NCBI GenBank assembly: GCA_024277355.1
Contig: JAJRVL010000004.1
Location: forward strand, 494,575-526,574
DNA from: an archaeon
GTDB lineage: Archaea; Iainarchaeota; Iainarchaeia; Iainarchaeales; 1-14-0-10-31-34
Direction: 5' to 3'
Length of the DNA stretch: 32,000 nucleotides
Under the pieces are notes generated by a model, which worked only from the letters and a program-made list of their open reading frames with translations, did not search any database and was not told where the DNA came from. The stretch's first letter is position 1; each line of letters starts with the position of its first letter. Below are positions 9,584 to 31,998 of the stretch, piece after piece. The translations under genes and the position numbers were made by a program.

Positions 9584-11212
9584 ATGAATAAAAAAATTTT
9601 AGTTTTCTTTACATTACTTTTGTTTTTCAATTTAGTAAATGCAGTATTAATTATTCCTCCAAGTCTTTCAATAACATGGAGTCAGCCTTCAAGTTCTACA
9701 ACAATAATAGGAAAATATGGACCAAACCTTTTAGTAATCCCAAAAATTTATTGTAATGACGGGCCATGCAACGACATGCAAGGAATACTAGAATATTGCC
9801 TTGGAGATTCATGCACTAATTATCAAACAATGTGTTATGGAAGCGCATCAACCTGCAGCACTGAACCAGTATATGTTACAATATCTTCAAACACATATAA
9901 ACAAAATCCATGCACTCCAAAAGATAGTTTAAGCGGATATTATTATTGCTGGTGGGATCTAAGCGCAAATTATCCTTCTTATTATGGACAAACAATCGAA
10001 TTAAGAGTTAAAGCAACTGCTTCAAATGTAACAAATGATGCATATCTTACAGGAAGAGAATATTATGTTGATTCACCAACCACAGTTACATTAAACCAGC
10101 CTTCAAGTAATGTCTCAAAAGAAAAAGGAGAAACATTAACAATTAACTGGACTACAAAAAACGACCCAGAAGGAGACAACCAACGTTCAAGAATCTATTA
10201 CAACCCTTCAGCATACTGCACTCCAATAGTAAACCCAATAACATACGGGACAGTAGAAATTTATGACTCTGCAGGTTTTCAGTCTGAAGGAACATATTCT
10301 TATGACTGGACTATCCCTAATGACATAACTGCAGGAGAATACTGCGTTTTTGTTCAAGCAAACTACGTAGCAGACGCAGTTTCAACCGTACAAAGAATAA
10401 CAATAACTGATCCTCCGTCTATTTCAATTAGTTCCCCTCAAAACAATAATGTTTTTGTTATTGGTTCAGAAATAAATTTTACTGCAAATGTTTTTGATGC
10501 AGGTTTAAATTATACTGTTGAATGGGATTCAAATAAAGATTTAGACTGGAAATCCACAAACGAAAATTTTAGTTATTCAGGTTTAAGCATCGGCGACCAC
10601 AAGATTACTTTAACAGGATTTTTTGATAAAAGCGGAAACATTACCACTAAAACAGACTCAGTTCAAATAAGCGTTGTACCTATTTCAACTGATGTTCTTG
10701 GAATAAGATATTTTGAAATATATGAACCAGCAGACAAAATACTTCAAACTACTTCAATCAGAATACTTGCTAAAACCAAAATAGATAATTTTACTGCAAC
10801 AGACAAAAATGTGGATTTAAATGTTACTTTAATTAATGCAGAAACAGGACAAAGAGCAGTTGACAGAATAACAGGAATTCCTTATGAACCATTTAATGAA
10901 AAAGCATTAGTTCCTGCATACAGTTACGTACAAATTAGCAATTATATTGGTTTAATAAAATTAAATGAAGGAAACTATAAATTAGTCGTAGATATAAGCG
11001 AATACCAGCCGGAACAAAACACTGCAAACAATCATTTAACTGAAATAGTTACAGTAACAAAAGCCGTTGAAGAAATTAAGTTAAGCGAAATAGAAGTAAT
11101 AATTCTTCCAGTAATAATCCTCTTAATTTTATTGATTATAAATAAAGAAAAAATAACTGAATTAATCAAAAAAAAAGATTTAACTGCAAAAAAGAAAAAT
11201 AATAATAAATAA
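9584..11212 (+). CDS. Secreted, C-terminally membrane-anchored surface protein with a Cys-rich N-terminal region and Ig/CARDB-like repeats
   Basis: 542 aa. Signal peptide MNKKILVFFTLLLFFNLVNA. Cys-rich block CNDGPCNDMQGILEYCLGDSCTNYQTMCYGSASTCS. CARDB-like ending EYQPEQNTANNHLTEIVTVT. C-terminal TM VIILPVIILLILLII plus a basic tail KKKDLTAKKKNNNK. Many N-x-S/T sequons (NVT, NVS, NWT, NFT, NYT, NFS, NIT). Confidence 0.6.
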   Translation: MNKKILVFFTLLLFFNLVNAVLIIPPSLSITWSQPSSSTTIIGKYGPNLLVIPKIYCNDGPCNDMQGILEYCLGDSCTNYQTMCYGSASTCSTEPVYVTISSNTYKQNPCTPKDSLSGYYYCWWDLSANYPSYYGQTIELRVKATASNVTNDAYLTGREYYVDSPTTVTLNQPSSNVSKEKGETLTINWTTKNDPEGDNQRSRIYYNPSAYCTPIVNPITYGTVEIYDSAGFQSEGTYSYDWTIPNDITAGEYCVFVQANYVADAVSTVQRITITDPPSISISSPQNNNVFVIGSEINFTANVFDAGLNYTVEWDSNKDLDWKSTNENFSYSGLSIGDHKITLTGFFDKSGNITTKTDSVQISVVPISTDVLGIRYFEIYEPADKILQTTSIRILAKTKIDNFTATDKNVDLNVTLINAETGQRAVDRITGIPYEPFNEKALVPAYSYVQISNYIGLIKLNEGNYKLVVDISEYQPEQNTANNHLTEIVTVTKAVEEIKLSEIEVIILPVIILLILLIINKEKITELIKKKDLTAKKKNNNK

Positions 11213-19023: not shown

Positions 19024-19512
19024 TTATTCTATTTTAGCAACCCAGTCTTGTAGTGCTAAACTTTTTCCAACTGTGGCTATGCAACAAAATTCTCGGCAAG
19101 AAGACTCACAACTTTTTGAACTACACATAATGTAAAAATCTGTTTTTGTTTCTTCATTAAACTTTAAGGAAAATTCATTTTCTGAATCAAGATATTCAAC
19201 TGAATTAAGTTTAGGGGAAAAATCTAATTTAACACATTCTTCATTGACGTTCAAAATTTTTGAAAATTGTTTTGAGTTAAATGAGTATTCTTTTGGAATA
19301 ACCACATTTTTTGTACTAAAAACAGTTCCATCAGGAGATTGCCCAGCATTTTTTATTGAATCTTCAATTGAAGTTACATCACTATATACCACAGGCCCAG
19401 AACACGACCCCATTATTTCACAGACAAAAACATAACCTCCAATAAATAAAATAACTAAAACAATTATTGCACCGATTATAAAACTTGAAAATGCACTTCC
19501 TTTGCAGTTCAT
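19024..19512 (-). CDS. N-terminally anchored Cys-rich extracytoplasmic protein, function unknown
   Basis: 162 aa. MNCKGSAFSSFIIGAIIVLVILFIGGYVFV anchor followed by a soluble region with multiple Cys, including CSSKSCESSCREFCC. Confidence 0.45.
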   Translation of the reverse strand: MNCKGSAFSSFIIGAIIVLVILFIGGYVFVCEIMGSCSGPVVYSDVTSIEDSIKNAGQSPDGTVFSTKNVVIPKEYSFNSKQFSKILNVNEECVKLDFSPKLNSVEYLDSENEFSLKFNEETKTDFYIMCSSKSCESSCREFCCIATVGKSLALQDWVAKIE

Positions 19513-21609: not shown

Positions 21610-21636
21610 GATGCAAAAGCATCTTTACTTTTTTTC
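21610..21636 (+). terminator. Short hairpin plus T-rich tract downstream of thrS
   Basis: GATGC-AAAA-GCATC (21610-21623) followed by TTTACTTTTTTTC. Oligo-T tracts are the archaeal termination signal. Confidence 0.35.
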
Positions 21637-21645
21637 TTCTTAGTT

Positions 21646-21657
21646 AAATTTAAATAA
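21646..21657 (+). promoter_or_regulatory. TATA-like box upstream of the pilus ATPase gene
   Basis: AAATTTAAATAA is centred about 35 nt upstream of the ATG at 21686, which would give a short 5' UTR. Confidence 0.3.
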
Positions 21658-21685
21658 TCTAAAGCGGTTTTGTTATAGGATAAAC

Positions 21686-23401
21686 ATGGCTAAATATTTT
21701 AATGACTTAATCAAAAAAGCAAAAAGGATTAAAACAGAAAAAGACGAATTAAAACCTAAAACAAAAAAACCTGCAATAGATGAAGATAAAGTAAGAAAAA
21801 CTTTAGTCATGGAAAAAAGAAAAAAAAGAATGAAATTAGAAGAAGAACTTAAAAAAACTTTACCTGAAAAAAAAGAAATAAAAAAAGAAGAAGACTCTGA
21901 AGAAACAAAGGAAACAGAAAAAGAAAAAATTACATCTTCAGTTGATTTAGAATTAGAATCAATGGATAAAAAAGAAATTGATTCTTATGGAGACGTGAAA
22001 GTTTACAAAGTTCCTGGAAAAGTTTTGCCTTATTATGTTATTCCGGTAACTAAACCAACTTTAGGGGAAAGAACAATAATTAACACAATAAAAGAAGCAG
22101 CCACAAGATTAATTGCAATTGCACCATATAAAATTCGGGATCCTGAACAAAGAAGAACAGTTTACAGACAAAAAATAATTGAAATACTTCAGGCTTCAAG
22201 TGAACTAAATATTCCTGAAAGAAGATTTAATTTTTATGCTGAATCAGTTGTAAGAGAAATGGTTGGATATGGATTATTAGATCCGTTAATTAGAGACGAC
22301 CAATTAGAAGAAATTATGGTTATTGGACCAAAAAAACCTGTTTATATTTTTCACAGAAAACATGAAATGATGATGACAAACATTGAATTTTTTTCTGATT
22401 CAGAAATAACAGATTTAATTAACAGAATTGCAAGAGAAATCGGAAGAAGAGTAGACATGTCTTCTCCTTTATTAGATGCAAGATTAGCTGATGGTTCAAG
22501 AGTTAATGCGACAATTCCCCCTGCATCAATTTCAGGTTCAAGTTTAACAATCAGAAAATTCAGAGAAGACCCCTACTCAATAATTGATTTAATTAAATAC
22601 GGGACATTTAATACAACAAGTGCAGCTTTTGCCTGGCTTTGTGTTGATGGTTTAGGAGTTAAACCAGCAAATATTTTGATTACAGGCGGAACAGGTTCAG
22701 GAAAAACAACTACACTAAACGTTTTAGCTTCATTTATTCCTGAAAGAGAAAGAATTGTTACAATTGAAGACACAGCAGAATTAAATTTACCTTTAAAACA
22801 TATAATTAGTTTAGAATCAAGGCCTCCTGGATTAGAAGGAACAGGAGAATTAACATTAGATATTTTAACTAAAAATTCTTTAAGAATGCGTCCAGACAGA
22901 GTAATCGTAGGAGAAGTAAGACATGACGAAGCTTTCACTTTATTTACAGCTATGAACACAGGACATGACGGTTGTTTAGGAACAATTCACGCTAACTCTC
23001 CTCAAGAAACACTTGTAAGAGTTACAAGTCCTCCAATGAACGTTCCTGAAGTAATGCTTTCAGGATTAGATTTAGTTATAGTTGAACACAGAATTCATGA
23101 CAAAAAAAAAGGAACAATAAGAAGAATAACTGAAATAGCTGAAGTAACAGGAGTATTAGAAAACAAAACTTCTACTCAGACTTTATTTGAAAGAGACGCA
23201 GTAAAAGACAAATTAATCAGAACTAATGTTGAAAGTATATTCTTAAAAAATTTAATGAAATTTACAGGATACACTGCAAAACAAATTGAAGATGAATTAA
23301 ATGCAAGAGAAAAGTTTTTTGAAAAATTAATTGAAAAAGGCACAAGAGATATGGGCGAAGTTGTCACTGCAATGCACGACTTCCTAAATACAAGAAAGTG
23401 A
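21686..23401 (+). CDS. Type IV pilus assembly ATPase (VirB11/FlaI/TadA superfamily, T2SSE domain) with a K/E-rich N-terminal extension
   Basis: 571 aa. Walker A ITGGTGSGKTTTLN, Asp box/Walker B RIVTIEDTAEL and RVIVGEVR, His box TGHDGCLGTIHANS. The first roughly 100 residues are lysine/glutamate-rich low complexity. Confidence 0.9.
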   Translation: MAKYFNDLIKKAKRIKTEKDELKPKTKKPAIDEDKVRKTLVMEKRKKRMKLEEELKKTLPEKKEIKKEEDSEETKETEKEKITSSVDLELESMDKKEIDSYGDVKVYKVPGKVLPYYVIPVTKPTLGERTIINTIKEAATRLIAIAPYKIRDPEQRRTVYRQKIIEILQASSELNIPERRFNFYAESVVREMVGYGLLDPLIRDDQLEEIMVIGPKKPVYIFHRKHEMMMTNIEFFSDSEITDLINRIAREIGRRVDMSSPLLDARLADGSRVNATIPPASISGSSLTIRKFREDPYSIIDLIKYGTFNTTSAAFAWLCVDGLGVKPANILITGGTGSGKTTTLNVLASFIPERERIVTIEDTAELNLPLKHIISLESRPPGLEGTGELTLDILTKNSLRMRPDRVIVGEVRHDEAFTLFTAMNTGHDGCLGTIHANSPQETLVRVTSPPMNVPEVMLSGLDLVIVEHRIHDKKKGTIRRITEIAEVTGVLENKTSTQTLFERDAVKDKLIRTNVESIFLKNLMKFTGYTAKQIEDELNAREKFFEKLIEKGTRDMGEVVTAMHDFLNTRK

Positions 23402-23405
23402 AACC

Positions 23406-24563
23406 ATGAGTAAAAAAATAGATAAATTAAGAAAAATAATTGAAGAAAAAAAAGAGAAAAAAGACCAGAAAAAAGCTTCTGCAGATATGGATGAAGTTGA
23501 AAGAATTGTTGAAAAAATGAAAAGAAGATATTCCGAAGAAGGAATGGAAATGGAGGAAGTTGGCGGAAGATTAAAAGAATTAAGAGGAATTATTGCAGAA
23601 GGAAAACAAACAGAATTAGAAGTTCAAACAGTAGAAGACTTAAAAGTTTTTAGTTCTCCTTTAGTCCGGCAATTAGGAAAATTTTATTTAACATTAAAAG
23701 CAGTAACAAAACCACTTGAAAAAATTATAAGTAAACTGCCTCAAGTAAAGCAATTGAGTTTTTATTTGTATAGTGCAAACATGAAAATTTCAGCTAAACA
23801 ATTTTTAGCAATAATTACTTCAGTTGCATTAATTGTATTTGTTTTTTCTACAATTCTTTTAAGTTTATTGATTTTTACTTTTTTTCAGCAGGCTCCGCTA
23901 ATAACTAAAAGTCTTTTAGTTTTAATTGTAAGTTTAATGCTGACTTTTATTACAATAATAATTGGTTTTTTGATTCCAAGAAGAAAAGCAATGTCAAGAG
24001 GAGATGCAGTTTCAAGAGAATTACCTTTTGCTTTAAGACATATGGCAACAGAACTAAAATCAGGTTTAGGTTTATACAGAACAATTCAGACAATTGCAAT
24101 GGCAGATTATGGAGAATTAAGCGAAGAATTCTCCAGAACAATAAATGAAATTGAAGAAGGAACAGACACTAAATTAGCTTTAAGGCATATGGCTTTAAGA
24201 ACTCAGTCAAAAGCATTACGAAATTCTTTGATTCACGTAATCCGTGCTTTAAGAACAGGGGGAAATTTATCTGTTATTATGAATGACATTGCAGATGATG
24301 TATCTTTTTCTTTGAAAATGAAAATAAAAGATTTCTCCCAAAAAATGAATTTTTTTGGAACCATTTTTATTTATTTAGCAATTGTTATTCCTGTTTTTAT
24401 TTCAATTTTAGGAGGAATAAAAATTACTCCAATTCAATCAGGAAGTGTTTTTCAATCACTTCCATTAGATACTCCAGTAATGATTGTTTTCTTTGTGGTT
24501 TTTATGCCAATGCTTTTAACTTATCTGGTGTTCTTTATTTCATTAAGCCAGCCAAAGGTGTAA
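23406..24563 (+). CDS. Pilus platform membrane protein with a single T2SSF domain (TadB/EpdJ-like)
   Basis: 385 aa. T2SSF block LPFALRHMATELKSGLGLYRTIQTIA...EFSRTINEIEEGTDTKLALRHMA...LIHVIRALRTGGNLSVIMNDIADD flanked by TM segments. K/E-rich N-terminal extension. Confidence 0.8.
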   Translation: MSKKIDKLRKIIEEKKEKKDQKKASADMDEVERIVEKMKRRYSEEGMEMEEVGGRLKELRGIIAEGKQTELEVQTVEDLKVFSSPLVRQLGKFYLTLKAVTKPLEKIISKLPQVKQLSFYLYSANMKISAKQFLAIITSVALIVFVFSTILLSLLIFTFFQQAPLITKSLLVLIVSLMLTFITIIIGFLIPRRKAMSRGDAVSRELPFALRHMATELKSGLGLYRTIQTIAMADYGELSEEFSRTINEIEEGTDTKLALRHMALRTQSKALRNSLIHVIRALRTGGNLSVIMNDIADDVSFSLKMKIKDFSQKMNFFGTIFIYLAIVIPVFISILGGIKITPIQSGSVFQSLPLDTPVMIVFFVVFMPMLLTYLVFFISLSQPKV

Positions 24564-24566
24564 TTC

Positions 24567-25586
24567 ATGGCAAGAGTAAGATTATATCAAAAAATAGGGT
24601 TTTTAAAGAACTCTTCATTCTTAAAAAAATACGAAAAATACTTGGATCAAATTAACCTTAAAGTTGATCCCTTGCTTTGGGTTACATTGTCTTTTTTGGT
24701 TGCAGTAATTGTTGCAATTTTAACTTTTTTATTACTTAAATTTTTATCTCCTGTAACTGATCCAGCTCAGGTTGCATTAGGAATACAAGAACCGCCTTTA
24801 ACTCAATCAATGGGAATAATGGTTTTTGTATTATTTTTTGTTTCAATTGACTTGATTATGGGTTATCCTTATATTAAAGGAGTTCAAAGAATTGGAAGCA
24901 TTGAACAGGAATTACCTGAAGCATTAAAGCAGATGGCAGACATATTAAAAGCAGGCGGAACATATGAATATGCTTTAAGAGAAATAAGTCATGCAGACTT
25001 CGGTCCATTAACAATAGAATTAGAAGCTGTGTTAAGAAAATTAGAAGAAGGAGAAAATTTTGAAGATTCATTATCAACTTTATCTTATAATATTGATTCA
25101 AGATTAGTTAAAAGAAGTGTAACAATAATAATTGATTCAGTTAAAGCAGGAGCAGGATTAGCAGATGTATTAGAACAGATTGCAGAAGACATAAGAGACA
25201 CAAACAGACTTAACCATGAAAGAAGAAGCCAGACTTTAATGCAGGTATTGTTTATGGTTACAGCAGGAGCAATTGTTACTCCGTTTATTTTTGGTTTAAT
25301 TTCAACTATAATTGGTTTTTTAATTTCTGCTTCAGCTAATTTAGGTGGTCTGCCAGATGAAATAAGAATTGACGCTACAAATTCAAAAACAATTTTACTT
25401 TTATTATTACAGATTTATATTTTTGTTGAAGTGACTGCTTCAAGCGTAATGATTTCTTTGATGAGAGAAGGCAAAAAAAACAAAAGTATTATATATCTTC
25501 CAATCCTCTTATTTATTGGATTTATAGTTTACTTTATTTCAGGAGCAATTTCAAAGTCTTTAATCGCAGGCATTGGAGGATTATAA
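24567..25586 (+). CDS. Pilus platform membrane protein with a single T2SSF domain (TadC/EpdK-like)
   Basis: 339 aa. LPEALKQMADILKAGGTYEYALREIS...LEAVLRKLEEGENFEDSLSTL...IIIDSVKAGAGLADVLEQIAEDIRD flanked by TM segments. Confidence 0.8.
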   Translation: MARVRLYQKIGFLKNSSFLKKYEKYLDQINLKVDPLLWVTLSFLVAVIVAILTFLLLKFLSPVTDPAQVALGIQEPPLTQSMGIMVFVLFFVSIDLIMGYPYIKGVQRIGSIEQELPEALKQMADILKAGGTYEYALREISHADFGPLTIELEAVLRKLEEGENFEDSLSTLSYNIDSRLVKRSVTIIIDSVKAGAGLADVLEQIAEDIRDTNRLNHERRSQTLMQVLFMVTAGAIVTPFIFGLISTIIGFLISASANLGGLPDEIRIDATNSKTILLLLLQIYIFVEVTASSVMISLMREGKKNKSIIYLPILLFIGFIVYFISGAISKSLIAGIGGL

Positions 25587-25587
25587 A

Positions 25588-25731
25588 ATGGAAGAAAAAG
25601 CACAAACTTCAATTGAAACATTATTAATTATTGCTTCAGCAGTAGTTATTGCAGTAATTGTAGGAGCATTTTTGAAATCATTAGTCACAGGAACAGGCGG
25701 AATAGCCCATAAAACAGAACAATTAAGTTAA
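25588..25731 (+). CDS. Mini-pilin 1 (class III signal peptide, 47-aa precursor); not in the ORF track
   Basis: Hand translation: MEEKAQTSIETLLIIASAVVIAVIVGAFLKSLVTGTGGIAHKTEQLS. KA|Q processing motif, Glu at +5, about 20-residue hydrophobic helix. Starts 1 nt after the stop of the preceding platform gene. Confidence 0.7.
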   Translation: MEEKAQTSIETLLIIASAVVIAVIVGAFLKSLVTGTGGIAHKTEQLS

Positions 25732-25744
25732 TGAAAAGAAAATG

Positions 25745-25752
25745 TTTATAAA
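25745..25752 (+). promoter_or_regulatory. Candidate internal TATA box ahead of mini-pilin 2, with a strong Shine-Dalgarno sequence
   Basis: TTTATAAA lies in the only sizeable gap (79 nt) of the pilus locus. AGGAGGG (25797-25803) sits 7 nt upstream of the ATG at 25811. Confidence 0.3.
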
Positions 25753-25810
25753 CAAAAGTTGAGTTATTAAATAAAACATAAATTTTTATTAAAAAAAGGA
25801 GGGAAATTAA

Positions 25811-25984
25811 ATGGATAACAAAGCACAAGGAGCATTAGAATATTTGTTATTAATCGGAGGAGCAGTATTAATTGCAGCAATTGTAATTGTAATATTGACT
25901 TCACTTGCAGGACCAGGAAAAACAACTAATGCCTTAGGAAGATATAACAACGAATACAACACATTATACCACACATCTGTATAA
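25811..25984 (+). CDS. Mini-pilin 2 (class III signal peptide, 57-aa precursor); not in the ORF track
   Basis: Hand translation: MDNKAQGALEYLLLIGGAVLIAAIVIVILTSLAGPGKTTNALGRYNNEYNTLYHTSV. KA|Q motif, E at +5. Preceded by a GGAGGG Shine-Dalgarno sequence. Confidence 0.75.
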   Translation: MDNKAQGALEYLLLIGGAVLIAAIVIVILTSLAGPGKTTNALGRYNNEYNTLYHTSV

Positions 25985-26003
25985 ATTAACTAAAATGATT
26001 TCT

Positions 26004-26183
26004 ATGGAAAATAGAGCACAAGCATCAGTAGAATATTTGTTGTTAATTGGAGGAGCAGTATTAATTGCAGCAATTGTAATCATAATACTTGTTTCCTCTG
26101 CAGGGCCAGCAGGACAAACCAGTAACGCATTAGGAAAATATAACAACGAATACAATGAATTATACCACACAGAAACAACATAA
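26004..26183 (+). CDS. Mini-pilin 3 (paralogue of mini-pilin 2, 59-aa precursor)
   Basis: MENRAQASVEYLLLIGGAVLIAAIVIIILVSSAGPAGQTSNALGKYNNEYNELYHTETT. The ORF track starts at 25995 (MISMENRAQ); the ATG at 26004 is preferred by analogy with the MDNKAQ/MEEKAQ paralogues. It shares a 32-nt identical stretch with mini-pilin 2. Confidence 0.75.
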   Translation: MENRAQASVEYLLLIGGAVLIAAIVIIILVSSAGPAGQTSNALGKYNNEYNELYHTETT

Positions 26184-26193
26184 AGGAATTTTT

Positions 26194-26352
26194 ATGGATA
26201 ATAAAGCACAAGCAGCATTGGAATACCTTTTGCTTATAGCTGGTGCAGTTGTAGTAGCTGCAGTAGTTATAATTGCATTAGGTGGTATTACTAATTCAAC
26301 TCAAAATAAAACACATAATACTTTAACTCACTGGCTGACACATATTAGTTAA
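26194..26352 (+). CDS. Mini-pilin 4 (52-aa precursor)
   Basis: MDNKAQAALEYLLLIAGAVVVAAVVIIALGGITNSTQNKTHNTLTHWLTHIS. The ORF-track start at 26155 overlaps mini-pilin 3, so the internal ATG at 26194 is preferred. Two N-x-S/T sequons (NST, NKT). Confidence 0.75.
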   Translation: MDNKAQAALEYLLLIAGAVVVAAVVIIALGGITNSTQNKTHNTLTHWLTHIS

Positions 26353-26363
26353 AAGTGATTTTT

Positions 26364-26534
26364 ATGGAAGAAAAAGCACAGGTTTCAATTGAATATTTAT
26401 TAAGTGTGCTTTTTAGCATTGTGTTAGTTATGGCTGCTGCAATCCTGCTTGACACTTTAAGGGCTTTAGCTCAAACCTCTAAAGCAACAGTCTTAAGAGT
26501 AAGAGAACAAACAATAGAAACACTGATAGAATAA
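26364..26534 (+). CDS. Mini-pilin 5 (56-aa precursor); not in the ORF track
   Basis: Hand translation: MEEKAQVSIEYLLSVLFSIVLVMAAAILLDTLRALAQTSKATVLRVREQTIETLIE. KA|Q motif, E at +5. Confidence 0.7.
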   Translation: MEEKAQVSIEYLLSVLFSIVLVMAAAILLDTLRALAQTSKATVLRVREQTIETLIE

Positions 26535-26545
26535 AAGGGGAAAAA

Positions 26546-27679
26546 ATGATTCCCTTTTCTTTTTTTTATTTCTTTTTTTCAATAACATTACTTGCTGTTG
26601 GAAGTTACACTGATTTCAAAGAAAGAATTATTTCAAATAAATTAACTTATTCTGCTGTTGCAATAGGAATATTAATTCATTTAATTGAATCCTATTATTC
26701 TGCTGATTATTCTGTTTTAGGAATAACTGTTATTGTAACAATTGCAACTTTTATTGCATCATATGGTTTATGGAAAATTGGAGTATGGGCAGGAGGAGAC
26801 GTAAAATTATTTACAGCATTAGCTGCATTAAATCCAGTTAATTTAGGAATAATAAGAGATGCAATTGGATTAAAATATTCATTGCTTGCATCAATTTCTC
26901 TTCCAGTTTTTCCTTTAACTTTATTTATTTTCAGTATTTTTTCAATGCTTCCTTACGGCGTTTTTTTAAGTTTAGGAACACTAAAAAAAAGAAAAGATTT
27001 AAGAGACAAATTAATTTTTGAATTAAAAGAAAAATTAATTTATACTGCAGAAACAATTGCATTAATTACAGGAATAAGTTTTATTTTAGGAAAATTCACT
27101 GAAGGAATACTTCTTTTTATTTTAGTTATTGCAGTAATAATTATTTCAACTAAATTAGAACATAAACTAAAATTAATTTTAACTTTAATTTTATTTGGTT
27201 TTGCACTTTATTCAGACTTTAAATTTGTTTTTCAGAATTATTTAATTGGATTTATTTCACTTTATTTTATTTATGTTTTCTTAAAAATGTTTTCTTTTGG
27301 AAGAGAATACTCATTAAAGAAAAAAATTAAAGTAAAAGAATTAGAAGAAGGAATGATTCCTGCTTTTTCTTTATATGAAATTGAAGGCAAAATAATAGAA
27401 AAAAAGCCTTTAAGTATAGGAAATATTATTAAGCATGTTAGAACTAATAATTTACAAGCATTACTGGGAGAACTTCAACCAAAAGGAAAAGAAATAGTTT
27501 CAGCAAAAAAAGCGGCAGGAATAACCGACGAAAAAGTATTAGAATTAAAAAAATTAGCAGAAGAAAAAAAAATTAATGAAGAAATAGAAATAAAATTAAC
27601 AGCACCAATGATTCCAGCAGTATTCATTGGATATGTGTTAGTTAATATTACAGGGGATTTGATTTGGAATTTAATGTAA
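26546..27679 (+). CDS. Archaeal prepilin/preflagellin peptidase (A24 family, EppA/PibD/FlaK-like), long form
   Basis: 377 aa. First catalytic Asp context GSYTDFKERIISN; second in WAGGDVKLFTAL (GxGDxK). Extra TM segments and a soluble K/E-rich insert precede the final TM (LTAPMIPAVFIGYVL). AGGGG Shine-Dalgarno sequence upstream. Confidence 0.85.
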   Translation: MIPFSFFYFFFSITLLAVGSYTDFKERIISNKLTYSAVAIGILIHLIESYYSADYSVLGITVIVTIATFIASYGLWKIGVWAGGDVKLFTALAALNPVNLGIIRDAIGLKYSLLASISLPVFPLTLFIFSIFSMLPYGVFLSLGTLKKRKDLRDKLIFELKEKLIYTAETIALITGISFILGKFTEGILLFILVIAVIIISTKLEHKLKLILTLILFGFALYSDFKFVFQNYLIGFISLYFIYVFLKMFSFGREYSLKKKIKVKELEEGMIPAFSLYEIEGKIIEKKPLSIGNIIKHVRTNNLQALLGELQPKGKEIVSAKKAAGITDEKVLELKKLAEEKKINEEIEIKLTAPMIPAVFIGYVLVNITGDLIWNLM

Positions 27680-28173
27680 AAAAAGGACAAACTTCAATTG
27701 AATTTATGCTACTAATTGTTGTTACATTGCTTTATATTCAGACAGTAATTAATCCTAATGTAAATGAAGCATTAACAAGTGTTAGTGATACAGCAAGAGT
27801 AGGAGAAGCAAGACTTGCAACAGAAAAATTAGCTAATGCAGTAAATTATGTTGCAGCATCAAATTCTGAAAGCAAAACAACTGTTAACTTGTTTATTCCG
27901 GATCGAACAATAATAATGTGTGATGAAATAAATAATAGATTAAGATATGAAACAGTAATTGACTCAAACATTGCAAAATGCGGAATATTAGACGGCAATC
28001 CTGCAAACTGCGACAAAAACTTTGAATTAAATCCTACCATAAATTTAACTTGTTCAGTTCCTCCGTTTAACTCAAGTAAAATAATTGATGCAAATTATGT
28101 GTCTAATCCTGTAACATTATACATTGAAAGAGATTCAACTGGAAATGTAACAATAACAGGAAACATAAGTTAA
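27664..28173 (+). CDS. Larger pilin-like protein with a class III signal peptide
   Basis: 169 aa. MEFNVKKGQTSIEFMLLIVVTLLYIQTV with KG|Q and E at +5. Globular C-terminal region with four Cys and four N-x-S/T sequons (NLT, NSS, NVT, NIS). TTG start overlapping the peptidase stop. Confidence 0.7.
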   Translation: MEFNVKKGQTSIEFMLLIVVTLLYIQTVINPNVNEALTSVSDTARVGEARLATEKLANAVNYVAASNSESKTTVNLFIPDRTIIMCDEINNRLRYETVIDSNIAKCGILDGNPANCDKNFELNPTINLTCSVPPFNSSKIIDANYVSNPVTLYIERDSTGNVTITGNIS

Positions 28174-28185
28174 AGGTAAAAAAAA

Positions 28186-28545
28186 ATGAATAAAGGGCAG
28201 TCAAGTTTTGAAGTAATAATGGTTACATTAATTGTAATAGTTACTGCAACATTTATTTTAGGAACTTTTTTTGATTTAGGAGACCAGACTTTTGCTTTAG
28301 CTTCAATAAAAGCAAATGTAATGGAAGAATTAGATAAAAATGAAAGCTTTTATGTATTAAAAAAAATTTATTATGAACAGGCAAATACAAACACAATAGA
28401 GTTTGATATAATAGTAGTAGATGATACAATTCAGCAAAATCCTGCTTATTATTTTGATTTAAATTCTTCAGCTCAACGAATAATAAATTATACAAAATTC
28501 AAAAATTTAACAATAAAAATGTCAGGAAACCAAGTTTATCCGTGA
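28186..28545 (+). CDS. Pilin-like protein with a class III signal peptide
   Basis: 119 aa. MNKGQSSFEVIMVTLIVIVTATFILGTFF with KG|Q and E at +5. Four sequons (NES, NSS, NYT, NLT). Confidence 0.65.
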   Translation: MNKGQSSFEVIMVTLIVIVTATFILGTFFDLGDQTFALASIKANVMEELDKNESFYVLKKIYYEQANTNTIEFDIIVVDDTIQQNPAYYFDLNSSAQRIINYTKFKNLTIKMSGNQVYP

Positions 28546-28549
28546 AATT

Positions 28550-29110
28550 ATGTTAAAAGAATTTCTTAAACAAAACATTAAAGGATTTAACTACAAAAAT
28601 TTCATTGCAATGAAAATCCAGTTAAGTTTAATTTTAATGACTTTAACAGGATTTACTTTTTTTTTAACTGGGTTTTATTTTACTGCTTCACTAGAAATAA
28701 TTTTTTCTTTGGTTTTTTTTCATTCATTAACTGAAGCAAAAAAAGAATTCACACAAGACTTTAAATTATTTGTCTTGCTTTTTGGTTCATTTTATTTAAT
28801 AATCCAATTAATCTGGTTAAACCAGGTAATTATTCCAGCAGAAAACAGAATTGACTTTGGTTTTGTTTTAATTTTTATTTTAGTGATAATAACAGTGATT
28901 TATACTGTTTTAATTAAAAAAAACACAATTAAAGGAAAAGTTATTTCATCTAATGGAAAAGTAACTGTAATTGAAACAGAATTTGATTTAAGAAGTTTTA
29001 CTAAAGGTGGAAAACACATAATTGAAACCCCCCAAAAATTCAACGAAGGAACAGAAATCAAAATAAAAATACAAAAAAGCATTATAGGAAAACACATTGA
29101 AATAATTTAA
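28550..29110 (+). CDS. Membrane protein with a C-terminal beta-rich soluble domain, function unknown
   Basis: 186 aa with four hydrophobic segments, then KGKVISSNGKVTVIETEFDLRSFTKGGKHIIETPQKFNEGTEIKIKIQ. Starts 4 nt after the preceding pilin-like gene, so probably co-transcribed. Confidence 0.45.
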   Translation: MLKEFLKQNIKGFNYKNFIAMKIQLSLILMTLTGFTFFLTGFYFTASLEIIFSLVFFHSLTEAKKEFTQDFKLFVLLFGSFYLIIQLIWLNQVIIPAENRIDFGFVLIFILVIITVIYTVLIKKNTIKGKVISSNGKVTVIETEFDLRSFTKGGKHIIETPQKFNEGTEIKIKIQKSIIGKHIEII

Positions 29111-29158: not shown

Positions 29159-29794
29159 TTGAAAATGGAATTAATTTTCATTGTGTTAATTGGATGTATT
29201 GCAGGAATTTTCACTGGATTAATTCCCGGAATACACATAAATACTATTGCAGTTTTACTGCTTTATTTAACGCCATCCAATAAAGAATTAATTTATTTTA
29301 TTATTCCAATGGCAGTTGTACACACTTTCGTTGATTTTATTCCTTCAATTTTATTTGGAGCAGTAGAAGAAGAAAACTTTTTGTCTGTTTTGCCTGGGCA
29401 TAAAATGTTAATGCAAGGCAAAGGATTAACTGCAATAAAAATAACAGTTTTAGGAGGAGCAATAGGGGGAATAACTTCTATTTTGTTTTCTTTTGTTTTT
29501 ATTAAATTAATTGAAAAAATTAAAGGGATTATTCCAAAATTAATTTCTCCTTTATTGATTTTTGTTTTGCTTTTAATGGTTTCAGAAGAAAAAAACAAAA
29601 AATATTCAGTTTTAGTTATTTTTCTTTCAGGAATTCTTGGATTAATTGTATTAAATGACTTTTTTTATGTTAAAGATTCATTGTTTGTTTTAGTTACGGG
29701 ATTTTTTGCTTTTCCTTTGCTGATAAATTCAGTTATAAAAAAAACAAGTATTCCAAAACAAAAAAAAGAAAAACATAAAATTAACTTAAATTAA
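29159..29794 (+). CDS. TctA/DUF112-family membrane permease, N-terminal half (ends at an in-frame TAA)
   Basis: 211 aa. GCIAGIFTGLIPGIHINTIAVLL and GAVEEENFLSVLPGHKMLMQGKGLTA fit the TctA-family pattern (G..G.lPG...; svlPgh.m..G.g). Confidence 0.6.
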   Translation: MKMELIFIVLIGCIAGIFTGLIPGIHINTIAVLLLYLTPSNKELIYFIIPMAVVHTFVDFIPSILFGAVEEENFLSVLPGHKMLMQGKGLTAIKITVLGGAIGGITSILFSFVFIKLIEKIKGIIPKLISPLLIFVLLLMVSEEKNKKYSVLVIFLSGILGLIVLNDFFYVKDSLFVLVTGFFAFPLLINSVIKKTSIPKQKKEKHKINLN

Positions 29795-30331
29795 ATTAAA
29801 GGTTCACTGTTAAGTGTTTTTGGAGGAAGTGTTGTTTCATTAATTCCTGCAATAGGACCAAGCATTTCAGCTTTTGTTTTAACAAAATTCACTAAATTAA
29901 ATGAAAAAGGATTTTTAGCTTTGCTTGGAGGCATTAATACAGCAAACATTATTTTTAGTTTTTTTGTTTTAATTTCAATTGGAAAAACAAGAAGCGGTTC
30001 AGCTGCAATAATAAAAGAACTAGGAAACATAACAATAAATGAATTAATTTTAATTTGTTCTGTAATTTTTTTTGCAGTAATTTTTGCTTCAGTTACAACA
30101 CTTTTTTTAGCTGAAATATTAATTAAAAAAATCCAGAAAATTAACTACAAAAAAACAAATTTAATTATACTGTTTTTTCTTGTTTTACTTGTTTTTTATT
30201 TCAGCGGAATAAACGGTTTAATTATTTCTTTTGTTTCAGCTTTAATAGGGTTGATTGCAGTGAAAAAAGGAATTAAAAAAAGTTCTTGTATGGCTTTCCT
30301 GATTTTTCCTGTTTTAGGTTATTATTTTTGA
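29795..30331 (+). CDS. TctA/DUF112-family membrane permease, C-terminal half; same frame as 29159..29794, no canonical start before TTG 29921
   Basis: Codons right after the TAA read IKGSLLSVFGGSVVSLIPAIGPSISAFVLTKFTKLNEKGFLALLGGINTAN. This repeats the G..G.(I/L)PG motif of the first half, so coding clearly extends upstream of the ORF-track start (29921). Confidence 0.5.
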   Translation: MKGSLLSVFGGSVVSLIPAIGPSISAFVLTKFTKLNEKGFLALLGGINTANIIFSFFVLISIGKTRSGSAAIIKELGNITINELILICSVIFFAVIFASVTTLFLAEILIKKIQKINYKKTNLIILFFLVLLVFYFSGINGLIISFVSALIGLIAVKKGIKKSSCMAFLIFPVLGYYF

Positions 30332-31998
30332 ATTATTTTAAATGTAACTGTATTAAGTTCATCATGTGCTTCAGAAAATATTTCAGAACACCTGTTATTT
30401 GACAAGCTTTCACTTAACTCTGGATTAAAATTTCCAAAACCATCTCTAATTTTATCATTATGAAAATAAATAATATAATCAATTTCATTTTTTTCCAGAA
30501 AAACACAGGGATCTCCTGAAAAATCAGCTTTCCAAGCATAATCATATGAAGTAGCTTTATCAAGCTTTAACAACAAAGCAGCACCATTAATAAACCAAAC
30601 TTTAGTATCAGAAGTATTTTCAATGCTTTTCCCTGCATACTCATAATTTTTTGAAGTTGATTGCACGTAAAAATGAGTTAAAACAGAAACTGAAGTAAAA
30701 AGAATTATTGCAACAAAAAGAGTTGCAATAAAAATTGAAATTTTTTTATTCTTTAATGAAACAATTTTTTTTAATTGGATTCCTGCAAAAATAGATAACA
30801 AAGCATAAACTGGAAGAAAATACCTTGGAAAACCACTTAATGTAGGGTATGCTTTACTGACAAAAGTTGCAAATAAAAACAAACTCAAAGAAATAAAAAA
30901 TAAAACTGAAAAATCTTTTTCAGAGCCTTTTTTCCAGAGCAAACCAAGCAAAAAAAGAAAAGGAACAAAAAACAAATAAAAATTATGCAAAAAATAATTA
31001 AAAAATATTTCTCCTATTCTAAAAGCATTTGAAAAAAAGTTAAACACAAAACCATTTTCTGATATTACTCCATAATCTCCAACACTGTCATATTCTAAAG
31101 GGGTGTTAATATGAGAAACAAAAAAAACCAACGAAATCAAAATAAAAATAATTGAAGAAAAAAACACTTCTTTATACTTTTTTTTATAAATAAAAAATAA
31201 CATAAAACCAACAAAAAATATTACTCCTGTTAATTTTGTTAAAAACATTAAGCCAGACAAAAAACCAGTAATTAAAATAAATAATTTGTTGTTTTCTTTA
31301 AGATATTTCAAAATAAAAAAAACTGAACCCAAAAAAAACATTGAAAGAAAACCTTCAACACCAAAATATGTGCTAAAAACCAAGACAATAGGTGATAAAC
31401 CATAAATCACTATAGAAAAAAATTCTCCATATCCTGCTTGTTTGCTGATAAAAAAAATCAAAAACAAAGACAAAACTAAAGAAAAAAACGAAATAAACCA
31501 GAAAAAATTACTATTCAAAAAAAACTTAGTTATTCCTGCAAAAGATTCAAACAACAAAGGAAACTGATTGCTTCTGACTTCATAAACATTTTTTGGTTCA
31601 ACAAAAAAAGTTTTTTCGCCATCATCAGCAAAATCATTAATAATAGGCAAATGATAAGCAGAATCATCATAATTTACTATTTGATTAACAGGAATAAAAA
31701 AAGCAGTTAAAACTAAAGATAAAATTAAAATATAAATTCCAAATAATTCAGGTAAATTTTCTTTTTTAAGCTTTATACTATTTAATTTTATTTTATTTAT
31801 TTTATTTAACCATTCAAAATTTGGTTTCTTTATTAAAAAAAACAAAATTAACAAAATTAAAGCATAAGCATAAATTATTTCTTTTGTTATGCCAAAAAAA
31901 GAAACCATGAAATAATAAAAAAAAGAAGTAACAGACAAAGACAAAAAAACAGACAAAACCCATTTCTCCAAACCAAAAAAATGCTTTTCAACCAACAA
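30322..31998 (-). CDS. GT-C-fold polytopic membrane glycosyltransferase (PMT_2/ArnT-like), possibly 5'-truncated by the window edge
   Basis: 558 aa with at least 12 hydrophobic segments. First extracytoplasmic loop has an acidic motif VNYDDSAYHLPIINDFADDGE. About 100-aa soluble C-terminal domain. No WWDYG motif, so not AglB. The ORF-track start is a TTG 2 nt from the window end, so the true start may lie outside. Confidence 0.5.
   Translation of the reverse strand: MLVEKHFFGLEKWVLSVFLSLSVTSFFYYFMVSFFGITKEIIYAYALILLILFFLIKKPNFEWLNKINKIKLNSIKLKKENLPELFGIYILILSLVLTAFFIPVNQIVNYDDSAYHLPIINDFADDGEKTFFVEPKNVYEVRSNQFPLLFESFAGITKFFLNSNFFWFISFFSLVLSLFLIFFISKQAGYGEFFSIVIYGLSPIVLVFSTYFGVEGFLSMFFLGSVFFILKYLKENNKLFILITGFLSGLMFLTKLTGVIFFVGFMLFFIYKKKYKEVFFSSIIFILISLVFFVSHINTPLEYDSVGDYGVISENGFVFNFFSNAFRIGEIFFNYFLHNFYLFFVPFLFLLGLLWKKGSEKDFSVLFFISLSLFLFATFVSKAYPTLSGFPRYFLPVYALLSIFAGIQLKKIVSLKNKKISIFIATLFVAIILFTSVSVLTHFYVQSTSKNYEYAGKSIENTSDTKVWFINGAALLLKLDKATSYDYAWKADFSGDPCVFLEKNEIDYIIYFHNDKIRDGFGNFNPELSESLSNNRCSEIFSEAHDELNTVTFKIIQK

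Follow-up and report, generated by a model that had tools for sequence, protein, structure and literature searches.

The 32,000-nucleotide (nt) stretch analyzed here, referred to as the window, is part of contig JAJRVL010000004.1 (assembly GCA_024277355.1) and comes from a DPANN archaeon of the Iainarchaeum group. On its + strand, between positions 21686 and 28545, lie eleven genes in the same direction which very probably form a self-contained operon for an Epd-like type IV pilus, a Tad-related class known among archaeal type IV filament (TFF) systems as "System 1". They encode one assembly ATPase, two platform proteins (F1 and F2), seven pilin-like proteins (pA, pB1, pB2, pB3, pC, pD and pE), and a prepilin peptidase. 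The locus is a cleanly organized, conserved example of a catalogued pilus type and not a new machine, since System 1 or Epd-like loci have been described before, including in DPANN (bioRxiv 10.64898/2026.04.22.720090; PMC4858521; PMC6668835; PMC6393860). An earlier note on this DNA had counted twelve genes. The list of open reading frames (ORFs) holds eleven, which is also the sum of the note's own list, and an additional ORF of at least 20 amino acids (aa) does not fit. The motifs quoted in that note (GGTGSGKTT, GHDGCLGTIHANS, SYTDF, and GGDVKL) are all present.

The gaps between neighboring genes range from −16 to +12 nt, with the sole exception of 79 nt before position 25811, and all components are found together within 6.9 kb. 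The G+C content of the window is 22–33%. The predicted operon likely begins within 21610..21685, where reading by eye finds a hairpin (GATGCAAAAGCATC, 21610-21623) and a T-rich run 3′ of the threonyl-tRNA synthetase (ThrRS) gene, followed by a TATA-like A/T-rich box (TTAAATTTAAATAA, about 21645-21658) approximately 30 nt 5′ of the ATPase ATG. The 79-nt gap (25732..25810) contains a TATA-like TTTATAAA at 25745-25752 and a strong ribosome-binding site, GGAGGG, at 25798-25803, and may be an internal promoter for the pB pilin genes. The probable true starts of three genes lie slightly inside the listed ORFs (25588, 26194, and 26364).

This arrangement is conserved in a large group of relatives. 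Among genomes sampled at one per GTDB species, relatives of the ATPase occur in at least 575 species representatives. The loci examined were the best 80 by ATPase match; nearly all are from Iainarchaeal or unclassified archaeal metagenome-assembled genomes (MAGs), with ATPases 59–83% identical to that of the window. The order ATPase-F1-F2-pA-pB (0–3 copies)-pC-peptidase-pD-pE holds without exception in the 60 related loci long enough to include the peptidase, and the pilus genes are ordered identically on three contigs of other origin. The small ORFs, whose conservation the earlier note had proposed as a check, are thus kept in place across the group. The number of pilin genes per locus varies from 3 to 7, most commonly 5, and the window, with its three pB paralogs, is at the top of this range. 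ATPase homologs with at least 60% identity number in the thousands and are mostly labeled Diapherotrites, Iainarchaeum, Micrarchaeota, and Nanoarchaeota. The related loci come mostly from Iainarchaeum/Diapherotrites MAGs, and these closest relatives agree with the DPANN-like origin that the earlier note had suggested. The 5′ ThrRS gene and a 3′ TctA transporter gene are often kept beside the related loci as well, which points to vertical inheritance of the pilus locus, and not to a mobile island.

The archaeal ATPase gene is also represented on contigs assigned to Chloroflexota MAGs (L010 and L029) and by a protein assigned to Izemoplasmatales (P0098), and L029 contains the entire pilus locus plus its archaeal ThrRS neighbor. 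The bacterial assignment of these sequences is most likely due to binning contamination.

Assembly ATPase and platform proteins

The first gene (21686..23401) encodes an assembly ATPase of TadA/CpaF/EpdL type. This protein is 571 aa long, carries the Walker A motif GGTGSGKTT, and begins with a Lys/Glu-rich variable extension of about 95 residues. Pfam agrees with the earlier note in assigning it a T2SSE domain (PF00437, 3e-47) and in finding one such ATPase followed by two platform proteins with a single T2SSF domain each. In its core, the ATPase is 64% identical to a Thermococcus "CpaF family protein", 53–54% to that of Methanocaldococcus lauensis, 49% to Marine Group II, 45–46% to CpaF, and 39% to both Sulfolobus acidocaldarius FlaI and GspE2. 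Among solved structures in the PDB, Caulobacter CpaF is the best match (267 bits), followed by Archaeoglobus fulgidus GspE2 (228 bits) and S. acidocaldarius FlaI (210 bits).

A neighbor-joining tree of the ATPase core was computed with 200 bootstraps; distant ATPases were taken from a search of a representative library of 1.84 billion proteins, and neighbors were named through protein-cluster look-ups. The Iainarchaeal ATPases are monophyletic in 200 of 200 bootstraps. Their first labeled neighbor is Thermococcus, Methanocaldococcus, and/or CpaF in 185 of the 200 and FlaI/GspE2 in 9. By these nearest neighbors, the ATPase is placed with the clade that holds the Methanococcales and Thermococcales ATPases and bacterial Tad, and not with those of archaella or of clades 2/4. 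Thermococci and methanococci are the taxa of clade 1, the Epd system, in the classification of Makarova et al. (PMC4858521). Where they occur in Methanocaldococcus and Thermococcus genomes, these ATPase genes precede two T2SSF genes, an order shared with the window.

The platform genes give a similar picture. Exactly one T2SSF (PF00482) domain is found in each of two adjacent genes, F1 (23406..24563, 385 aa, 8e-20) and F2 (24567..25586, 339 aa, 3e-18), and the N-terminus of F1 is K/E-rich and cytoplasmic. In the Thermococcus clade-1 locus, the reciprocal best match of F1 is the first of two T2SSF genes (119–121 bits, compared to 76 bits for the paralog F2), while that of F2 is the second (118–122 bits). 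Judged from these matches, F1 and F2 are one-to-one, position-for-position orthologs of the Thermococcus platform pair. F2 also aligns with the FlaJ and UpsF models, in each case with the C-terminal half. Sequence searches of the PDB with F1 and F2 gave no useful match.

These data bear directly on whether the locus could instead be a degenerate archaellum or be derived from one, a reading that is effectively refuted. Some annotation does lean that way, as automatic annotation at JGI labels many homologs "FlaI" or "FlaK", and the top NCBIfam match of the ATPase by score is the FlaI equivalog model, with the TadA family next. However, the FlaI score is 294.5 bits against a cutoff of 550, core identity is 39% to FlaI compared to 64% to Thermococcus, and FlaI is the first to join the Iainarchaeal ATPases in no more than 9 of 200 bootstraps. 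Two separate genes encode the platform, instead of a single two-domain FlaJ. In addition, no archaellin-sized subunit and no FlaF/G/H/C/D/E (or X) was found among the scanned window ORFs, which cover 21 kb upstream and 3.5 kb downstream of the locus. The ATPase is judged not to be FlaI because it scores below the equivalog cutoff and is nearer to the Thermococcus and Methanocaldococcus clade-1 ATPases. The archaellum reading was rejected on the sub-cutoff score, the split platform, and the missing archaellum genes among the scanned ORFs, as the earlier note had anticipated.

The idea that DPANN archaea were the donor of bacterial Tad systems or have some other special bacterial link was rejected. 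CpaF is 52% identical to the Thermococcus ATPase and only 45% to that of the window, so the Iainarchaeal lineage has no special tie to bacteria.

Many orthologous ATPases contain inteins (Pfam Intein_splicing and LAGLIDADG_3), among them P0004-P0007, P0062, P0095, P0118, and many long entries from the library search. Judged from breaks in the matched stretches, the intein sites lie after about residue 430-432 (GHDG/C) or about residue 364, in window numbering. The window ATPase has no intein. Other relatives (P0008-P0010, P0139, and P0143, one of which is labeled Hydrothermarchaeales) are 950–1150 aa long, with at least two matched stretches and approximately double the score, and look like tandem-fused double T2SSE ATPases.

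Pilins and prepilin peptidase

All seven pilins feature the motif [KR][GA]/Q-x-x-x-E, in which the slash marks the predicted cleavage site, followed by a hydrophobic helix. The whole 32-kb window was searched in six frames for [KR][GA]Q...E followed by 16 mostly hydrophobic residues, with mononucleotide shuffles as the control. This search returned exactly 7 matches, all on the + strand within the pilus locus, and 0 in 200 shuffles, which bears out the earlier description of seven Q+1/E+5 genes with a basic leader and a hydrophobic helix. The class III signal check proposed at the same time came out in a similar way. Class_IIIsignal (PF04021) matches 6 of the 7 small proteins, three of them (pB1-pB3) over the gathering score and the others (pA, pC, and pD) under it, while pE has no match to this or any other Pfam family.

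Five of the pilins (pA, pB1-pB3, and pC) are tiny, with mature lengths of 41–55 aa, and are helix-only. The pA gene (25588..25731) encodes 47 aa beginning MEEKA/QTSIET (Class_IIIsignal 1.4e-4; also found by the motif test), has a mature length of about 42 aa, and has GGAGGA just 5′ of its ATG. Across 58 related loci, pA leads the pilin genes without exception, and its mature form there has a median length of 43 aa. The pB class is present in 0–3 copies of 46–158 aa, is often Cys-rich, and has an almost invariant N-terminus, QGA[LI]EYLLLIGG. In the window, it consists of pB1 (25811..25984, 57 aa, MDNKA/QGALEYLLLIGG, mature 52 aa, 2e-8), its close paralog pB2 (25995..26183, 62 aa, or 59 aa if the second ATG is used, ENRA/QASVEYLLLIGG, 4e-8), and pB3 (26194..26352, 52 aa, MDNKA/QAALEYLLLIAG, 5e-7). 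The sole long intergenic gap, with its TATA-like box, and the best ribosome-binding site of the locus precede pB1, which makes pB1 a candidate for the major pilin.

The last of the tiny pilins, pC (26364..26534, 56 aa, MEEKA/QVSIEYLLSV, mature 51 aa), has only a weak Pfam match (0.03). In 50 loci, its mature form is 50–53 aa long and without Cys; the window pC is also without Gly and looks all-helical. With a mean pairwise identity of 0.45, the same as that of platform F2, pC is the most conserved pilin of the locus, and the window pC is 100% identical to its ortholog in one related locus (L001) although the two ATPases are 83% identical. Position +6 is Tyr in 77 of 77 pB and 50 of 50 pC orthologs and Phe in 48 of 53 pD orthologs, and Ala predominates at −1 in both pA and pC.

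The two remaining pilins are larger. The pD gene (27664..28173) uses a TTG start and encodes 169 aa with the cleavage region KKG/QTSIEF, four conserved Cys, and four N-x-S/T sequons. Its class, of about 156 aa, is present 3′ of the peptidase in 53 loci. An AlphaFold2 (AF2) model of pD (pLDDT 77.6) has a helix at residues 9-64 followed by a beta domain, the "lollipop" shape of pilins. The pE gene (28186..28545, 119 aa, MNKG/QSSFEV), recognized by the motif test, belongs to the least conserved class, of about 112 aa. Some relatives carry added domains on their pilins. The pE ortholog in L040 (15848-17764) is extended at its C-terminus by seven DUF285 repeats (589 bits) and also matches Kazal and PKD weakly, and that in L067 (12170-13123) has a C-terminal ILEI domain (53 bits). 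In L078 (10822-11850), a pB-type pilin is fused to a 300-aa Cys-rich domain.

Two N-x-S/T sequons are found in the C-terminal tail of pB3, and the window pE carries such sites as well, in addition to those of pD. A PMT_2-family (ArnT/PMT-like) membrane glycosyltransferase gene lies at 30322-31998 on the − strand, convergent to the TctA gene, and has a counterpart at the equivalent position of L001, with a GT2 gene after it. Because pB3, pD, and pE bear sequons, this enzyme is possibly linked to pilin glycosylation. Another gene, at 19024-19512 on the − strand between an ABC transporter and the ThrRS gene, encodes a 162-aa Cys-rich protein with a class III-like N-terminus, MNCKG/SAFSSFIIGAIIVLVIL, which is without Gln +1 or Glu +5. 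It has no Pfam match, and the syntenic L001 has no gene called at this place. It is possibly one more pilin-like protein or a protein of the cell surface.

The prepilin peptidase (26546..27679, 377 aa) is embedded among its putative substrates, as had been noted earlier, and is a long archaeal form of the A24 aspartyl family (Peptidase_A24, PF01478, 6e-13; Arc_PepC, 8e-11). About 9–10 membrane helices are followed by a soluble alpha/beta domain (258-350) and a last helix, and an AF2 model (pLDDT 90.9) shows ten membrane helices, the alpha/beta domain at the same residues, and the final helix. The predicted catalytic residues, D23 (in SYTDF) and D85 (in GGDVKL), are both invariant in 47 homologs. 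In a fold search, the sole credible match is FlaK (3S0X), which covers the N-terminal protease core, and a profile search agrees (4.6e-15). The EppA model of NCBIfam aligns over the full length (9-367), while the FlaK model aligns only over 10-166. Two A24 forms have been distinguished in archaea, namely FlaK/PibD with five transmembrane (TM) segments and EppA with nine, the latter tied to clade 1 (Makarova et al., PMC4858521). The architecture of the window peptidase supports an EppA type, while orthology with EppA is unproven.

Place among known systems and probable function

The locus has the components that characterize the TFF superfamily, namely a T2SSE ATPase, a T2SSF platform, subunits with class III signals, and an A24 peptidase with two Asp. 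It further has those of the Epd-like group: the ATPase neighborhood, two single-T2SSF genes, Q+1/E+5 pilins, and short pilins without a globular domain. Short pilins and a pair of single-domain platform genes are the defining traits of the group that unites Epd-like and Tad systems (Denise et al., PMC6668835), and the substrates of EppA have short leaders with Gln +1 and Glu +5 (Nair et al., PMC3875500). A 2026 MacSyFinder survey by Sivabalasarma and Albers lists System 1 in DPANN too (bioRxiv 10.64898/2026.04.22.720090).

The likeness to Epd and clade 1 extends from the closest ATPases (Thermococcus and Methanocaldococcus) and the order of the platform pair after the ATPase to the long multi-TM A24 peptidase with Arc_PepC, the short leaders with Gln +1 and Glu +5 (DUF361/Class_IIIsignal), and the Flp-sized pilins without a globular domain beside larger minor pilins. 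However, there are differences. In the window, the whole system is together in one predicted operon. The Epd genes of Methanococcus maripaludis, in contrast, are spread over four or more sites (PMC3875500), and in Methanocaldococcus and Thermococcus the ATPase-F-F triad is found by itself. Tyr +6 of the window pB and pC is not found in M. maripaludis pilins (PMC3875500), and the latter all have Gly at −1 where window-type pA and pC mostly have Ala. The smallest pilins are 41–52 aa when mature, compared to 54–63 aa in M. maripaludis. Finally, the window ORFs scanned include no FlaH/TadZ-type gene, transglutaminase-type peptidase, or other Epd accessory gene.

Bacterial Tad/Flp pili (type IVc pili, T4cP) share the tadA-tadB-tadC gene order, and their ATPase CpaF is the best solved match. 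They also share Flp-sized, helix-only pilins, a dedicated peptidase encoded amid its substrates, and two larger pseudopilin-like genes in a TadE/TadF-like role. Of the Flp pilin motif, G/xxxxEY, the residues Glu5-Tyr6 are present in pB1-3 and pC. In contrast to Tad loci, there is no secretin (RcpA/CpaC), TadD, RcpB/C, TadZ, or TadG among the window ORFs scanned; for secretin, TadD, and TadZ this agrees with what an archaeon lacking an outer membrane should show. The window pilins also start with Gln +1 and have no Flp_Fap or TadE Pfam match, and the peptidase is the long archaeal form and not the short TadV.

Other DPANN loci, such as those of Nanohaloarchaeota and of "cluster 2" (PMC11291902) and the "dark matter" pilus island (PMC6393860), share a CpaF/TadC-type machine in a reduced genome, a cell-cell role that has only been proposed, and pilins that are poorly recognizable (PMC11291902; PMC6393860). 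By their descriptions they are set apart from the window locus, as they have FlaF/PilA-type filament proteins and different neighbors, while the Iainarchaeal version has an EppA-like peptidase and the ordered pilins pA to pE.

Several points weigh against the assignment to an Epd-like pilus. The deep branches of the neighbor-joining tree are not settled, and the Iainarchaeal and clade-1 ATPases do not form one clean clade in the bootstraps; placement with clade 1 thus reflects nearest neighbors and identity ranking, which is neighborhood evidence and not a robust clade. No TadZ/FlaH/MinD-type second ATPase, which Epd and Tad loci usually have, is present among the scanned window ORFs, and such a gene may lie elsewhere in the genome. 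The EppA equivalog score of the peptidase is 46 bits (cutoff 450), about equal to its FlaK-model score. The globular domain of pD matches no solved pilin in a Foldseek search of the PDB (best E = 0.07; archaeal pilins and archaellins at E near 1), and the identity of the major pilin is a guess. In the Iainarchaeal lineage, moreover, filament formation, processing, and adhesion are predictions from gene content.

Assembly of the Epd-like pilus may be envisaged as follows. The seven prepilins would enter the membrane via their hydrophobic N-terminal helices, and the long A24 aspartyl peptidase, using D23 and D85, would cut a basic leader of 4–8 residues after [KR][GA] to leave Gln +1 and Glu +5. 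A hexameric TadA/CpaF-like ATPase would then drive a heteromeric platform of the two single-domain T2SSF proteins, which would extract the processed pilins from the membrane and stack them as a thin helical fiber with a core of Flp-sized, helix-only subunits. The conservation patterns suggest that the variable, multi-copy pB proteins are the exposed major subunit(s), while pA and the near-invariant pC may be core, initiating, or priming subunits. With their globular domains, pD and pE would be minor pilins, and pE is probably at the tip, where some relatives show adhesin modules.

The function of the pilus is most likely adhesion to surfaces or other cells. This function is favored because the characterized relatives Epd and Tad are adhesive (PMC6668835), because some pE orthologs bear binding-type domains, and because there are no DNA-uptake or secretion neighbors. 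The host or surface attachment proposed in the earlier note nonetheless stays conjectural, and pili in DPANN-host contact have only been proposed (PMC11291902, PMC9938205).

A short or dynamic fiber used mainly for uptake of DNA or nutrients, comparable to a competence or type II secretion-like pseudopilus or a bindosome, is quite improbable. Such a device would suit a reduced, scavenging-dependent genome, as DPANN genomes rely on salvage, and the pilins are very short, with pC behaving like a non-exposed pseudopilin (100% identity compared to 83% for the ATPase). Type IV pili of ultra-small cells have also been tied to DNA uptake (PMC9938205), and functionalized archaeal TFF machines for substrate scavenging were proposed in a 2026 preprint (10.64898/2026.04.22.720090). 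However, neither the locus nor the genes beside it include a ComEC/ComEA/DprA-type gene or a substrate-binding protein of class III, and the signal of the nearby thiamine-type ABC binding protein is lipoprotein-like instead of class III. The adhesin-type domains on pE in two relatives (DUF285 and ILEI) suggest binding, and characterized Epd and Tad systems are, as noted, adhesive.

More improbable still is a pilus that retracts, whether for twitching or to pull the cell onto a host, with one ATPase that would serve both extension and retraction. The locus does have a single ATPase, which among solved structures is nearest to CpaF. In Caulobacter, this Tad ATPase has been described as bifunctional, powering both extension and retraction. 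DPANN, the group of this lineage, also include many archaea that attach to hosts (PMC11291902). On the other hand, the sequence holds nothing that separates retractile from static pili, and Methanococcus Epd pili are known as adhesive only. Retraction would in any case refine the adhesive reading more than contradict it.

It is also rather unlikely, if less so than either of these alternatives, that the locus represents an "all-in-one" subtype between methanogen Epd and bacterial Tad. Such a subtype would be marked by a single operon, five fixed pilin classes in a set order, Flp-type Glu5-Tyr6 in the filament pilins, the shortest pilins yet (~41 aa when mature), and a modular tip pilin, pE, with grafted adhesin domains that are lineage-specific; it would be the organism's main device for recognition and holding of partner cells, perhaps with extension and retraction by a single ATPase.

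As an adhesive Epd-like pilus, the locus leaves the picture of archaeal type IV filaments unchanged and fills in one branch, which will be no surprise to specialists. Still, DPANN archaea are tiny and mostly uncultured, many live attached, and their means of attachment are largely obscure, so a clean example for the large lineage Iainarchaeia/Diapherotrites is of use. One small operon would lend itself, as a minimal system, to heterologous reconstitution or to cryo-EM of a Tad-like fiber from an archaeon, and the fixed order of pilin classes together with the adhesin-fused pE variants offers testable ideas on subunit roles.

Flanking genes

Only 4 nt 3′ of pE, a gene at 28550..29110 (+ strand) encodes a 186-aa membrane protein, which has four hydrophobic segments and only a weak match to DUF2101. 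It may be co-transcribed with the pilus genes. It is not a core component of the locus, because a homolog follows pE in few related loci only (L001/L004, L015, L054, L067, and L071).

The TctA-family transporter gene (29159-30331, + strand) contains a single in-frame TAA at 29792-29794. Apart from this codon, the frame stays open across its 387 aa, and its product shares 69% identity with the L001 ortholog, which is intact and 389 aa long. The TAA could be a nonsense mutation, making this a pseudogene, or it could be due to a sequencing error or subject to read-through.

Further upstream, a gene at 9584-11212 (+ strand) encodes 542 aa that start with a signal-like segment, contain Ig domains of Big_7/PKD type, and end in a membrane anchor. 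The product, which may be a surface or S-layer-type protein, is unlinked to the pilus operon. At 1-2279 on the − strand, a gene for a CDC48/VCP-like AAA ATPase, assigned to this family by eye from its N-terminal sequence, runs off the start of the window.

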